Source of the DNA: a bacterium
GTDB taxonomy: Bacteria > Eisenbacteria > RBG-16-71-46
Assembly: GCA_043779265.1 (NCBI GenBank)
Contig: JAYWEM010000062.1
Location: forward strand, 1-11,273
Direction: 5' to 3'
DNA length: 11,273 nt
This document shows positions 3,136-7,555 of this stretch, in pieces. The notes beneath the pieces were generated by a model. The model was not told where the DNA came from and did not search any database. It was given only the letters and a program-made list of their open reading frames with translations. A program made the translations under genes and the position numbers. Within the stretch, counting starts at the first letter, position 1, and every line of letters begins with the position of its first letter.

Positions 3136-3621
3136 TCAGCGTTCGGGTGCGCCGGGTTCGCCGAAGTACCCGCGCATCAGCTCGCTGAACCAGACCGGCT
3201 CGAGAACCGCACGCGGCGCGTCGAACACGCCCGCGTGCGGTTTGATGTCGAGCACCGGTGTTCCCTCGAGCGCATCGAGCCCACGCACGCGCAGACCACC
3301 CGGCTCGAGCCCGACGATCGCGACGGTGGTGATACCGATCGGATTGGGGCGCATGCGGCCGCGTTGCGCGAACACGCCGAGCCGCGGCAGATCGGTGCGG
3401 CCACGCGGATGCCTCCGCCAGTCCTCGGGCGGGGCTTCGCCGGTGGGATCGCGATCGAGCCAGGTGATCACGACGACGTGCGACCAGGCTTCGAGCCCCG
3501 CGAGTCCGCTTCGATAGGCGGGCTCGAGCACGATCTCGGACTCGAGCGAGCCCCAGTCCGCATCACGGGCATCGTCGCGACCACTGCGCACGTGGCCGAT
3601 CGGTTTCAGGTGAATCTCCAT
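3136..3621 (-). CDS. trmO: TsaA/TrmO-family (UPF0066) SAM-binding protein, putative tRNA m6t6A37 methyltransferase (161 aa)
   Basis: Family motifs LKPIGHV, GLAGLEAWSHVVVITWL, GVFAQRGRMRPNPIG, GLDALEGTPVLDIKP. Start placed at ATG 3621 (MEIHLKPIG) because the ORF-track extension to 3954 runs through the riboswitch and inverted repeat. Confidence 0.9.
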   Translation of the reverse strand: MEIHLKPIGHVRSGRDDARDADWGSLESEIVLEPAYRSGLAGLEAWSHVVVITWLDRDPTGEAPPEDWRRHPRGRTDLPRLGVFAQRGRMRPNPIGITTVAIVGLEPGGLRVRGLDALEGTPVLDIKPHAGVFDAPRAVLEPVWFSELMRGYFGEPGAPER

Positions 3622-3629
3622 GAAGGCGC

Positions 3630-3635
3630 AGTGTA
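3630..3635 (-). promoter_or_regulatory. Putative -10 element (TACACT) of a leaderless or near-leaderless trmO transcript
   Basis: Minus strand reads ...ctcTACACTgcgccttcATG, a TAnnnT hexamer 8 nt before the ATG with no SD sequence. Confidence 0.45.
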
Positions 3636-3804
3636 GAGCGGGCGGGTCGCTCGGGCACCTGCAGCGGGGTGGCCGAAGTGCGAAGGGCTTCTGGAGCAGG
3701 AAGGCGGAAGAAGCCCGGAGGGAGGAGCGGAGGTGACAGGAAGTCACCGCAGCGACGCTGAGGCCACCCCGCTGCAGGTGCCCGAGCGCGACCATCCACT
3801 CTGC
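3633..3804 (+). ncRNA. Candidate structured ncRNA/element: long closing stem around a GGA-rich multiloop
   Basis: Perfect 27-bp inverted repeat 3648-3674 / 3762-3788, extended imperfectly (with G-U pairs on the + strand) to ~3633/3804. Internal stems GGGCTTCT/AGAAGCCC and GGTGAC/GTCACC. Eight GGA motifs in 3693-3741. The structure is directly visible, but expression and strand are inferred. Confidence 0.55.
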
Positions 3805-3816
3805 GACCAAAGCGTC

Positions 3817-3845
3817 TTGACCGTGCGCGACCGCAGGTGCACTGT
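3817..3845 (+). promoter_or_regulatory. Putative sigma70-type promoter for the riboswitch-btuB operon
   Basis: TTGACC (3817-3822), 17-nt spacer, CACTGT (3840-3845, weak -10). Would start transcription ~3852, just before the riboswitch. Confidence 0.4.
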
Positions 3846-3860
3846 GCCGCTCGAACATCT

Positions 3861-4040
3861 CCCAGGTGCCCGCGCGTTGCGGGTGAAAAGGGAAGCGGGT
3901 GAGATCCCCGCACGGTCCCGCCACTGTGATGGAGTGGCGCGCCAAGAAGGTCACGGTCCCGGTAACGGGGTCGGAAGACCGGCGCGCTGCGAGCGAGGCA
4001 GTCGCCGCGCTCGACCTCCTCAGTCAGGAAACCTGCCCAG
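3861..4040 (+). promoter_or_regulatory. Cobalamin (AdoCbl, class I-like) riboswitch aptamer
   Basis: AGGTGCCC...GGGTGAAAAGGGAAGCGGGTGAGATCCCCGCACGGTCCCGCCACTGTGA core, peripheral GTCACGG...CGGAAGAC element (variant of GCCACUG...GGGAAGGC), and 3' B12-box AGTCAGGAAACCTGCC (4022-4037). Lies upstream of a TonB-dependent receptor. Confidence 0.95.
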
Positions 4041-4103
4041 GAGCCATCGTCGCCGCCGCCTCGGAAGAAGGCGTGCGCGGCTTCGGGCAGCCGTCTTCGC
4101 ACT

Positions 4104-4169: not shown

Positions 4170-6146
4170 GTGATCGTCACGCTCTTGCTCGCTACCCAAC
4201 TCGCCGCGGACTCGCTGCCGCGCCCGGTCGTCACGTTGCCCGAGGTCCGGGTGACGCGGGAGCGCGTGCTCTCCGAGGCTCGCCGCCGCACGCCCACCGC
4301 GTTCGTCACCGACGTCGACGTGGCGGCTGGCCGCACCACGCTCACTTCGCTGCCCGAGCTGTTGCAGCAGGAGGCGAGCGTTCGCGTGGTGCAGTACGGC
4401 GGGCTCGGCGCCTTCAGCATGCTGTCGCTGCGAGGCGCACCGCCCGGACAGGTGAGCGTGTACCTGGATGGCCTGCCGCTCACGTCGGCGGCGCACGGCG
4501 TCGCGAATCTGTCCGATCTGCCCGCCACGCTGCTCGAACGGATCGAAGTGCACCGCGGGCTCTCGCCACTGGGCCTCGGCGTCGCCACCCCCGGCGGCGC
4601 GGTGAACCTGGTCACCGGCACGCGCGCGCGAGGCGCCACGCTCCGCGCCGCAGCGGGCTCGTTCGGCACGCGCGAGAGTTCGGGCGGATGGGCGGGCGCG
4701 CGTGGCGACTGGAGCGCGCTCGCCCATGCGGGCCATCAGGGTTCCGATGGCGACTTCCGCTATCACGACGACAACGGCACGCCGCAGAACACGCTCGACG
4801 ATGAGATCAGCACGCGCGTCAACGGCCGCTTCGATGCCGCGAGCGCTCTGGCGCGCGTGGCGTGGACTCCGCGTGTCGGTGCCTCCGTCTCGCTTCGGGC
4901 CGAGGCGTTCCATCGTGCTCAGGGCGTCCCGGGTGTGGGAGCCGTGCCCGCGTTGCACCCGAGGCTGTCGTTCGATCGGATGCAATGGGTCAGCGAGGCC
5001 AAGTGGGCGGCCTCGGATGCCGCGCCTTCGCTGACCGTGCGCGCCAGTGCGCAGCGCTCGAGGTCGCGATTCCGTGACCGCGAGGCCGAGTTGGGCTTCG
5101 GCGTCCAGGACACCGACGAGCGATTCCGAGACGACGGCGCCTCGATGGAGTGGGCGAGTCCCGCCACTTGGCCGCACGTCTCGGCCAGCGTCGGCAGCGC
5201 GCTGCGACGAGAGCGCGCCGAGCCCTCGTCGCCGAGTGAGGGTCTGCGCCTGCCGCCCCCGAGCACGCGCCAGTCGGAGGCCGTGTGGGCCTCCGTGCAA
5301 CTCCGGTTCGCCAGTGAGCGCGTCCTGATCCACGGGGCGCGTCGCTGGGACCGGCAGTTCGATGCCATCCGTTCCACCACCTCGAGCGGTGGCGCGCGCG
5401 CCTCCGACCGTCAACGCACGCTCGACACCCCGCAGGTCGGTGTGCGCGTGGCGCTGCCGCTCGAGTTGGAAGCGAGGGCCAACTGGGCCGAGGCGGCGCG
5501 TGCCCCAGGGTTCTTGGAGCTCTTCGGCAATCAGGGCCTGGTGAGCGGCAGTCCGACGCTGGCGCCCGAGCGAGGCGAGAGCTGGGATGCGGGCGGAGCC
5601 TGGCGTGGCGCTCGAGGCGCCTGGCGCGCGAGCGCCGAGTGGGCGCACTTCGAGAGCCTGGCGCGCGACCTGATCGTGTTCCAGCGCGTCGGCCCCACCG
5701 CGACGCGCGCCACCAACGTGGCGAGGGCTGCGCTCCGAGGCGAGGAACTCAGCGCACGCCTCGCGCATCCGAGGCTCGCGATCTCGGGCGCATCGAGTTG
5801 GCTCTCGGCGCTGCAGACCGAGGACCCCTCGCTCTATCGCGGCCGCCGTCTGCCGCAACGACCCTCCCGGCAGTCGAGCCTGCGCGCCGACGTGCCCGCT
5901 GGGCCGTTCTCGTTCTCGGCCGACGTGCTGCATCTCGGCGACGACTACCTCGATCCCATCAACTTCCGCCGCGTCCCCAGCCGCACGCTGATCGGCGCTT
6001 CGGTCTCGGCCCTTTGGCGTCAGCACCGCGTGGCGCTCGAGGGCCGCAATCTCGGCGATCGCCGCGCCGAGGACGTCGGCGGCTTCCCCTTGCCCGGCCG
6101 CACTCTCGCGATCTCGTTCGAGACGCGTTGGACGGTCCACCCATGA
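4170..6146 (+). CDS. TonB-dependent outer-membrane receptor, probable cobalamin transporter (BtuB-like)
   Basis: Short signal peptide, TonB-box-like TLPEVRVT, plug motifs SLRGAPPGQVSVYLDGLPL, LERIEVHRG and GGAVNLVT, and barrel C-terminus GRNLGD...GFPLPGRTLAISFETRW. The B12 substrate is inferred from the upstream riboswitch. Confidence 0.92.
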   Translation: MIVTLLLATQLAADSLPRPVVTLPEVRVTRERVLSEARRRTPTAFVTDVDVAAGRTTLTSLPELLQQEASVRVVQYGGLGAFSMLSLRGAPPGQVSVYLDGLPLTSAAHGVANLSDLPATLLERIEVHRGLSPLGLGVATPGGAVNLVTGTRARGATLRAAAGSFGTRESSGGWAGARGDWSALAHAGHQGSDGDFRYHDDNGTPQNTLDDEISTRVNGRFDAASALARVAWTPRVGASVSLRAEAFHRAQGVPGVGAVPALHPRLSFDRMQWVSEAKWAASDAAPSLTVRASAQRSRSRFRDREAELGFGVQDTDERFRDDGASMEWASPATWPHVSASVGSALRRERAEPSSPSEGLRLPPPSTRQSEAVWASVQLRFASERVLIHGARRWDRQFDAIRSTTSSGGARASDRQRTLDTPQVGVRVALPLELEARANWAEAARAPGFLELFGNQGLVSGSPTLAPERGESWDAGGAWRGARGAWRASAEWAHFESLARDLIVFQRVGPTATRATNVARAALRGEELSARLAHPRLAISGASSWLSALQTEDPSLYRGRRLPQRPSRQSSLRADVPAGPFSFSADVLHLGDDYLDPINFRRVPSRTLIGASVSALWRQHRVALEGRNLGDRRAEDVGGFPLPGRTLAISFETRWTVHP

Positions 6147-6160
6147 AGGAGCTTCACACC

Positions 6161-7555
6161 ATGCAATCGCCCCTCCACCTCTCGCTCGCGCTCCTCGTGC
6201 TCTTGTCCCCGTCGGCAGCCTCGGCGGCGAGCAAGGCGTTCGTATTCGGCACCGACTTCTCGACCGGCTCGCTCAGTTCGGTCGTGACCGCCACCTCGAT
6301 TCCGAGCTGTGATGTGGCGAGCCCGCACTCGGATGCGCGGTTGCGGTTCTTCGGGGGCCAGATCTACGTGATCAATCGCTTCGGGGCCGACAACATCCAG
6401 ATCGTGAGCCCCTCGACTCACGCCACCGTGCGTCAGTTCAGCGTCGGCAATGGCGCCAATCCCTATGACATCGCGGTGCTGTCGCCCACGAAGGCGTACG
6501 TCACGCGCTACGAGCGTCGCGAGCTGTGGATCGTGAACCCCTCGACCGGCCTCAAGACCGGAGAGATCGACCTCGGCGCCTTCGCCGACGCCGACGGCAC
6601 GCCCGAGATGGACCGCATCGCCGTCGTGGGTCCGCTCGCGTTCGTCTCGCTGCAGCGGCTCGACCGCAACGGCGGCTTCGTGCCCACCGACAGTTCGCTC
6701 GTCGCGGTCATCGACACGCGCACCGACCAGTTGGTGGATTGCGATTCGATCGCACCCGGCGTGCAGGCGATCCATCTGCCGCGCACCAACCCCGTCACCG
6801 ACTTCGCGTTCGATCGCACCACGAGTCGTCTGCTGCTCGGATGCGCCGGGTTCTTCGGCGCGTTCGATGCCGGCATCGTCGCGATCGACGCCGCTGGGCT
6901 GACCTCCACGCAGGTGCTCGCGACCGACGCGGCGCTCGGCGGCGACTGCAATGACCTGGTGTGGATCTCGCCGACGCAGGCCTACGTCATCATCAGCACG
7001 CCGTCGTTCGTGACCAAGCTGGTCCGTTGGAACCCCTCGAGCGGTGCGGTCGGACCCACCCTGTTCGACCCGGCGGCGTTCGCCCTGTCCGATGTGGAGT
7101 ACGACGGCGCGGGGCAGCTCTGGCTGTGCGACAGCCGATTCGTCGGCGGTGCAGTGCGCCGGTTCTCGACCGTCACCGATCTCGCGATCGGTCCGCCCAT
7201 CGTGTGCACCCTGCCGCCTCAGGGCATCGTGTTCGATCAGGCGAGCGGCCCGATCGCGGGCGTTCCCTTGGGCGGCTCGGCCCTGGCGCTCTCAGCCCCA
7301 TGGCCGCTCCCGGCAAGGGGTTCCGTGCGCATGGCGCTGACCCTCGCCGAGCCGGGCGAGGCCAGTCTCGAGGTGTTCGATGCCTTCGGCCGCCGGGTTC
7401 GAGTGCTAGCCGAGGGAGCGCTGCCGGCCGGTGTGCGCGACGTGGTGTGGGATCTCCTCGACTCGCGCGGCGCCACGGTCGCCGCAGGCGTCTATCTGAT
7501 CCGGGCACGCACCGGGGCGGGGGAGGCCCGGCAGCGGGTGGTGGTCAGCCGCTGA
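6161..7555 (+). CDS. Secreted YncE/BtuG-like beta-propeller protein with C-terminal FlgD-Ig/T9SS-type-A-like sorting domain
   Basis: AAGGAG 9 nt before ATG 6161 (alternative start ATG 6143 overlaps the receptor stop, ATGA). Sec signal ending ASA-A with no lipobox. Propeller-like repeats (IYVINRF, NPYDIAVLSPTKAYVT, LWIVNP, VAVIDTRTD, QAYVII). CTD at ~7280-7555 (PWPLPA...FDAFGRRVRVL...VVWD...GVYLIRA...RVVVSR). Confidence 0.85.
   Translation: MQSPLHLSLALLVLLSPSAASAASKAFVFGTDFSTGSLSSVVTATSIPSCDVASPHSDARLRFFGGQIYVINRFGADNIQIVSPSTHATVRQFSVGNGANPYDIAVLSPTKAYVTRYERRELWIVNPSTGLKTGEIDLGAFADADGTPEMDRIAVVGPLAFVSLQRLDRNGGFVPTDSSLVAVIDTRTDQLVDCDSIAPGVQAIHLPRTNPVTDFAFDRTTSRLLLGCAGFFGAFDAGIVAIDAAGLTSTQVLATDAALGGDCNDLVWISPTQAYVIISTPSFVTKLVRWNPSSGAVGPTLFDPAAFALSDVEYDGAGQLWLCDSRFVGGAVRRFSTVTDLAIGPPIVCTLPPQGIVFDQASGPIAGVPLGGSALALSAPWPLPARGSVRMALTLAEPGEASLEVFDAFGRRVRVLAEGALPAGVRDVVWDLLDSRGATVAAGVYLIRARTGAGEARQRVVVSR

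Follow-up and report, generated by a model that had tools for sequence, protein, structure and literature searches.

A dispersed TwoAYGGAY-like repeat with two GGA hairpins in Eisenbacteria, likely mobile and a candidate ligand of CsrA

In the window, by which we mean the whole 11,273-nucleotide stretch of bacterial DNA analysed here, a long inverted repeat encloses a core rich in GGA (3633..3804). The initial annotation proposed that this might be an undescribed sponge-type RNA, sequestering CsrA through its GGA motifs and explained by no gene or riboswitch of the window. The locus therefore raises the question of what the element is, and of whether it is a gene for a dedicated RNA at all.

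The architecture described in that annotation was reproduced. The two arms (3648-3674 and 3762-3788) are 100% complementary over 27 bp and are separated by 87 nt; the eight GGA motifs lie exactly at 3693, 3699, 3706, 3717, 3721, 3724, 3729 and 3739; the heptamer CAGGAAG occurs at 3697 and 3737; the two inner hairpins are present and all eight GGAs are unpaired in the minimum-energy fold of the plus strand (3620-3820). This fold has an energy of -130 kcal/mol (z = -10.5) and its stability was equalled by 0 of 200 shuffles. When the other strand was folded, as had been suggested, it also gave a structure (z = -9.7), since any inverted repeat folds on both strands. The features of the element are the following.

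3633..3647, plus strand: outer imperfect extension of the basal stem, pairing with about 3789-3804 (fold; pairing also in the orthologue of the sister species, G002)
3648..3674, plus strand: 5' arm of the 27-bp perfect basal stem, with a copy-specific sequence
3675..3681, plus strand: tandem G·A/A·G (3675-76 opposite 3760-61), followed by a short helix that leads to the junction (fold)
3685..3716, plus strand: hairpin 1, with an 8-bp stem, a GGA/GGA 3x3 internal loop, a 2-bp stem and an AGGAAG loop (fold, covariation)
3717..3731, plus strand: purine-rich linker and base of hairpin 2, with four GGAs, a degenerate form of the AGYGAG motif of the family
3732..3748, plus strand: hairpin 2, GGTGAC-AGGAA-GTCACC, with a CsrB-type pentaloop (fold)
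3762..3788, plus strand: 3' arm of the basal stem (complementarity to 3648..3674)

In the plus-strand fold the tandem G·A pair tops the long basal stem; it is conserved in subfamily alignment A1, with Watson-Crick pairs in its place in two copies. TCC occurs a single time within 3630-3810, at 3795. In the 3.43-Mb genome that contains the window (G000), the element is the second-best inverted repeat enclosing 40-260 nt, and the top three such repeats all belong to one element family, the subject of what follows; the arm 3648..3674 has no other genomic copy above 16 nt. At least eight GGAs on either strand were found in 12 of the 39,366 87-nt tiles of G000, a rarity to be read together with the P = 0.04 obtained for eight GGAs in shuffles that keep the core's own purine-rich composition.

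The element sits between trmO and a divergent riboswitch/TonB-receptor unit, as listed here.

3136..3621, minus strand: trmO (TrmO_N, Pfam), which points away from the element and is not part of it
3630-3635, minus strand: TACACT box, inferred trmO promoter, 8 nt ahead of the trmO ATG
3817-3845, plus strand: inferred promoter TTGACC-17-CACTGT of the riboswitch/btuB unit, conserved in G002 and in two relatives (L091, L092)
3851-4050, plus strand: cobalamin riboswitch (Rfam, 81.9 bits), ahead of the TonB-dependent receptor
4170-6146, plus strand: TonB-dependent receptor of the btuB unit (Pfam), downstream of the cobalamin riboswitch

The statement that no gene or riboswitch explains the element was right in its conclusion, but it had overlooked the cobalamin riboswitch 47 nt downstream. 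The element is not accounted for by this riboswitch, since two relatives have both trmO and the riboswitch but lack the element. The promoter at 3817-3845 cannot transcribe the element, being positioned downstream of it, and the outer stem extension (3633..3647) overlaps the inferred -10 box of trmO. Neither flanking promoter is called by a consensus promoter scan, and both calls rest on conservation in G002, L091 and L092.

Some further observations were made on these neighbours. A TANNNT box lies 7-8 nt ahead of the trmO ATG in G000, G002, L091 and L092 (window 3619-3635, minus strand), and trmO is likely to be leaderless, judging from this spacing. The nearest TrmO relatives, 69% and 63% identical, are in records named Candidatus Eisenbacteria, which makes it likely that the window belongs to this phylum. 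The TonB-dependent receptor gene (4170-6146) is followed by an overlapping gene for a FlgD_ig-tailed secreted protein (6143-7555), and riboswitch, receptor and FlgD_ig protein likely form a B12-uptake operon; the divergent arrangement of trmO and the riboswitch/TonB-receptor unit is found in at least four Eisenbacteria genomes. An 85-aa ORF without a Pfam match (2329-2586) lies between a sigma-54 activator gene and an OmpA/Pal gene.

The window element is one of three copies in G000, together with C140:16931-17077 and C8:940-1105. A BLAST of the genome against itself with the window element gave no second copy; it took an inverted-repeat scan and profile searches to bring up the two paralogues. 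Across 61 genomes, BLAST did reveal divergent copies, located in the two congeners and in a further genus. The hairpin motif GCCA(N)GGAHGGCGGA is present in 71 of the 89 genomes of the family (286 matches, with few for the reversed control), and of 20 matches checked outside the family, 15 had no long stem around them and appear to be chance occurrences in coding sequence. An earlier profile (R1; 49 candidates scored per genome) was too narrow, with matches in 7 of 61 genomes. The sequence-only profile R2, built from 46 copies and with 91 candidates scored per genome, gave matches at E ≤ 1e-4 in 28 of 40 family genomes, including 19 of the 28 that had contributed no training copy. A long stem enclosed 24 of its 30 top-ranked loci and 0 of 16 weak matches outside the family. 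Absences in R2 searches are soft, since at this threshold the profile missed 3 of the 12 genomes with a training copy (G005, G010, G014) and is biased towards the family. No match to the element was found among the viral contigs or plasmids searched.

Carrier genomes contain from 1 to about 35 copies (most in G036). The two-hairpin core is common to the copies, while each has its own stem sequence, 15-45 bp long; in the 82 elements counted (85 detected minus L062, a strand duplicate of L083 and a coding match in L243) the arms are near-perfect and GC-rich, with a median of 32 bp. In G036 the cores are nearly alike and the 3' arms have a pairwise identity of about 0.3-0.45 beyond 11 nt. The cores contain 455 GGA vs. 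31 TCC, a figure that is partly circular because elements were found via one GGA loop. The loops are mostly AGGAN or AGGGAN, strict AYGGAY accounting for 14 of 153 loop matches family-wide, and five copies have ACGAN loops without GGA (C99 and C401 of G001; C149, C289 and C135 of G002). The genes flanking the 82 copies are arranged as ++ in 19 cases, -- in 16, convergently in 24, divergently in 7 and unresolved in 16, so the orientation of the element to its neighbours is free and convergent gaps are preferred. Divergent doublets are common (e.g. L174, L181, L239).

Several peculiarities of single copies can be mentioned. A half of one element is partially duplicated in tandem just outside the arms at G000:C140:17078-17137 (about 60 nt), and similar half-element tandem copies occur at L204, L206, L207, L224-L226, L229 and L239. 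The same intergenic sites are filled in different genera (L196/L277/L405; L074/L184; L078/L272; L231/L237), for instance at the 3' end of a thioredoxin-like gene, and subtype or orientation sometimes differs between them; the orthologous pair L231/L237 has compensatory and G·U changes in the arms. At L190 (the last 400 nt of G009:C57) a mirror of a gene 3' end of at least 58 bp encloses an element near the contig end, possibly as an assembly fold-back.

The check proposed at the outset, whether the stems vary while the GGA loops are kept, gave a positive answer: in 7 aligned copies two-sided changes were found in 33 of 49 pairs, a level reached by 0 of 500 shuffles, and slid controls paired 38-48% of cells as compared to 90% for the true alignment. 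RNAalifold on a 46-row MAFFT alignment gave no usable consensus. On the GGA strand, the 81 arms analysed contain 79 G·U pairs vs. 17 A·C mismatches, and 45 vs. 10 when paralogue bursts are thinned to 50 elements; per element in this thinned set, G·U exceeds A·C in 27, the reverse holds in 1 and 22 are tied. This excess favours folding of the GGA strand and suggests that the element is likely selected for folding; it could also derive from strand-biased C-to-T mutation or from folding of single-stranded DNA.

As regards movement, 12 of 23 copies from relatives have both flanks adjacent in G000, and all 12 sites (11 distinct) are empty there, 6 of them corresponding to copies from the same genus. 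L091 and L092 lack the element at the site of the window copy, with the trmO/riboswitch synteny kept. Many dispersed copies with target-site duplications had been named as what would point to a MITE or REP sequence instead of a sponge RNA: dispersal, empty sites and variable orientation were all observed, whereas no target-site duplication is evident in the 12 filled/empty comparisons, in which the flanks are only 67-86% identical. The idea that the arms are copied from the target site was abandoned, as the empty sites compared bear no trace of it. In G002 the same site is filled and the core is reversed between the arms, the inversion breakpoints falling within the two arms. Contigs of runs X3 and X4 change strand at 3645/3790 and 3648/3814 and may represent the G002 form. 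The element is thus likely, as far as genome comparison goes, to be a dispersed, non-autonomous mobile repeat. The word mobile rests here on presence/absence and copy number, neither a mobilising enzyme nor a target duplication having been identified, and repeated loss could mimic part of the signal. For this kind of element, the family offers direct comparative evidence of gain, loss and core inversion.

The other half of the initial proposal concerns CsrA. A csrA gene is present in G000, as it should be if the element is to act on its product, and in 83 of the 89 genomes of the family and 179 of the 206 of the phylum. The ORF beside it in G000 is presumably flgM-like. Its leader (G000:C18:3270-3340, L031) carries CACATGGATG and a GGAG-rich ribosome site, which likely mediates autoregulation. 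The loops of the window element do match the CsrB repeat CAGGA(U/A/C)G, as quoted in the portion of PMC7652899 consulted, and two A(N)GGAN loops would likely bind a CsrA dimer. It should be considered that in a 2026 study, as far as its consulted part goes, CsrA of Eisenbacteria is predicted to have low activity towards a B. subtilis target, with the caution that this does not amount to inactivity (PMC13443453).

Weighing these data, we lean towards the element being a non-autonomous mobile module of TwoAYGGAY-like type that is passively transcribed and binds CsrA. Copies would insert into short gaps between genes, for the most part close to gene 3' ends, and would be transcribed by read-through or in antisense, with no need for a conserved promoter. 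The long stem would hold both loops side by side for one CsrA dimer; such a stem is also a plausible, putative substrate of RNase III. All copies together may then constitute a weak distributed sink for CsrA and alter the stability of the transcripts that contain them. Selection on pairing, probably with the aid of copying from arm to arm, would maintain the complementarity of the arms, and recombination between arms would flip the core, as between G000 and G002. Some observations weigh against this reading. The window copy may be silent, as both flanking promoters point away from it and none was found for the GGA strand; the five copies with ACGAN loops have no GGA there; and G096, 96% complete, contains elements and no csrA match. 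Dependence on csrA could not be read from the genomes outside the family, where carriers are 2 of 28 csrA-positive and 0 of 11 csrA-negative genomes, too few to separate.

A different emphasis is that the module is a selfish, structural end whose GGA hairpins are recognised, as RNA or single-stranded DNA, by its own mobilisation machinery, CsrA binding being incidental or only tuning mobility. We consider this rather unlikely. The candidate partner is a multicopy family of HNH endonucleases (PF01844, about 500 aa), with at least 11 diverged copies in G000 and a conserved leader containing TTGACG. An HNH subclade of genus g23, with at least 65% identity to the query, is represented in G082 and G086 by 11 loci, 9 of which have an adjoining element; where both sides are assembled, elements flank the HNH gene divergently, and judging from the outer flanks these units occupy at least four different sites. 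Elsewhere, an element lies upstream and divergent at 3 of 6 HNH genes of G160 and at 2 of 12 contig-level HNH loci of G003, and a second one is often present downstream at element-bearing loci.

L225, L277, L281, L282, L286, L287, L292, L296, L301 (G082, G086): HNH loci with an element upstream, divergent
L285, L290, L305 (G160); L389; G003:C7: HNH loci with an element upstream, divergent

The partial tandem half-copies and short repeated motifs at the outer ends also suggest replication slippage during movement. Against this partnership, no element was found near the HNH loci examined in G012, G018, G025, G036, G037, G085 and G094, nor near the more distant ones of G086; none of the three element contigs of G000 is among its 11 HNH-bearing contigs; in G037, 8 elements stand against a single partial HNH match; and the L277 site in G085 contains a lone element without an HNH gene. 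When metagenomes were scanned for close HNH relatives, a single match was obtained, of 33% and without an element. The HNH gene may therefore be cargo, or may share insertion hot-spots with the element. Y1 transposases are less suggestive as partners, with an element within about 1.5 kb of 0 of 4 Y1 loci (L273-L276) and no Y1 match in G160. This Y1/IS200-like gene is single-copy in four genomes (G000:C36 (L273) and L274-L276) and looks domesticated; the gene directly upstream is, we assume, lexA, and the convergent neighbour EamA-like.

A bolder form of the same idea, which we regard as doubtful, is that the twin-GGA elements serve an HNH-encoding element as its mobile ends. The divergent pair with its HNH gene, seen intact in G082 and G086, would be the autonomous unit and lone copies such as that of the window non-autonomous derivatives, while host CsrA would bind the ends and couple movement to the Csr regulon. 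If true, the mobilising enzyme so far missing for TwoAYGGAY-like repeats would be at hand, and it would be seen that selfish elements can turn into a distributed CsrA sponge where the family has lost FliW. In either case the HNH gene is a candidate enzyme partner for a mobility that the consulted part of a 2026 preprint (bioRxiv 10.64898/2026.09.22.753630) calls unresolved.

That each copy is a dedicated, trans-acting sRNA gene of CsrB/RsmY type, replacing FliW in the family, appears improbable to us. The distribution of fliW makes the idea attractive: the gene is found in 0 of 89 family genomes, G000 included, where csrA is kept, as compared to 11 of 13 genomes in the sister families f2 and f3 and 47 of 206 in the phylum; moreover, the loops match the CsrB repeat and most family genomes have the element. 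However, outside the family the element was found in 2 of 39 genomes, G037 (8 matches at E ≤ 1e-4; 5 of 5 checked are real) and G160 (32 matches at E ≤ 0.01; 6 of 6 checked are real), and both have fliW besides csrA, so that the prediction, set beforehand, that the element tracks fliW loss failed. In addition, 0 of 11 csrA-positive, fliW-negative genomes outside the family carry it, with the softness of absences already mentioned. Family f11 likewise has fliW in 0 of 41 genomes and csrA in 38 of 41, and no antagonist was found for it. The consensus scan called no promoter or terminator for the window element, and 81 copies share no upstream motif or downstream U-tract. Without promoter or terminator, dispersed over sites that are empty in relatives, tied to no conserved locus and with its core inverted in G002, the window element is probably not the dedicated sponge-RNA gene that the initial annotation had in mind. 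The element family spans genomes with and without fliW, and joint action of FliW and RNA antagonists in one species is described as an open question in the consulted parts of PMC4333381 and PMC7652899.

It is very improbable that the core is an invertible switch controlling trmO or the btuB unit by its orientation. The opposite orientations in G000 and in G002, X3 and X4, with breakpoints in the arms, would suit such a switch, as would the overlap of the outer arm with the inferred trmO -10 box. Nevertheless, no recombinase or invertase was found among the 8 window ORFs scanned with Pfam, and no strand-changing joint was seen in the contigs of X1 and X2, although contigs drop rare variants; the difference in orientation observed lies between species only. 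The site is also empty in other relatives, and other copies lie between unrelated genes.

Finally, an assembly artefact or a chance hairpin, which might be suspected because perfect inverted repeats can arise at assembly and because the gene-end mirror of L190 lies near a contig end, is ruled out for practical purposes by homologues with covariation (the G002 orthologue with compensatory changes and 82 elements at the loci analysed) and by a 7,973-nt contig in X1/X2 that spans the element with 0 differences, although X1/X2 may be the window's source runs.

Among known systems, CsrB/CsrC and RsmX/Y/Z share with the element repeated loops of CAGGA(U/A/C)G type, single-stranded GGAs and the presence of csrA (PMC7652899, part consulted). 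They differ in that the element is closed by a 27-45-bp stem and has only two loop sites, is dispersed without a fixed locus, and yielded neither a terminator, a conserved promoter nor an Rfam match. Likenesses to hammerhead, K-turn/box C/D, SRP, 6S, retron and sigma-54 promoter were dropped on inspection.

MITEs and REPINs are, as the element is, short, non-coding, palindromic and intergenic, with variable copy number and empty orthologous sites. With respect to MITEs, the element is inside-out, the core being conserved and the terminal repeats copy-specific. REPINs are doublets of REP sequences moved by RAYT/Y1 transposases, whereas the Y1 gene here is single-copy beside lexA and is not flanked by elements.

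The closest resemblance is to the TwoAYGGAY RNA motif (RF01731) described by Weinberg et al. (2010; PMC2864571, part consulted), and for this reason the element cannot be called undescribed in kind: sequestration of CsrA by TwoAYGGAY was predicted in 2015 by Gardner and Eldai, who noted tandem GAs and a poorly conserved outer stem (PMC4333381, part consulted), so the idea of CsrA sponge repeats is itself not new. The preprint cited above, in its consulted part, reports extended forms, copy-number variation, divergent doublets and, in Bacillota, an elongated basal stem, and raises the sponge and mobility ideas as unresolved. We compared alignment A3 by eye with 46 seed rows of RF01731 (consulted part of the PMC2864571 supplement). 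In both, two hairpins follow one another on a shared basal stem, the outer stem is poorly conserved and the tandem-GA motif is present; both are also multicopy and intergenic, with divergent doublets and a long basal stem. Two further features of the seed rows argue in favour of a shared ancestry: hairpin 2 rests on the same AGYGA...GARCG base, which is degenerate in the window copy, and the loop variants AGGAC and ACGAY occur in both sets. On the other hand, the AYGGAY rule fails (the loops of the window copy read AGGAAG and AGGAA), an extra 3x3 internal loop of GGA/GGA type interrupts hairpin 1 and often also hairpin 2, and the arms are near-perfect (median 32 bp) and GC-rich.

The Rfam search that had been recommended found no relevant family on the window element, giving miRNA-hairpin noise only, nor on six relative loci. 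The RF01731 model has no match on the window at E ≤ 10 and exceeds its 43-bit cut-off in 0 of 5 genomes, with a best score of 28.9 bits in G036. Since both the Rfam cut-off and the strict AYGGAY loop test fail, we name the element TwoAYGGAY-like and place it outside RF01731. Our literature searches found nothing on it in the Eisenbacteria lineage; Eisenbacteria occur 0 times in the main text of the preprint, whose supplements may list further lineages or genes next to the motif, and core inversion and HNH bracketing are absent from the TwoAYGGAY literature consulted, which includes the preprint in part. What is new here is the Eisenbacteria lineage, the empty sites, the core inversion and the HNH subclade flanked by elements. 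According to the consulted parts of PMC4333381 and PMC7652899, CsrA-sequestering RNAs are established only in Gammaproteobacteria; outside this class TwoAYGGAY-like repeats are the main candidates, and the element family extends the TwoAYGGAY kind to another phylum.
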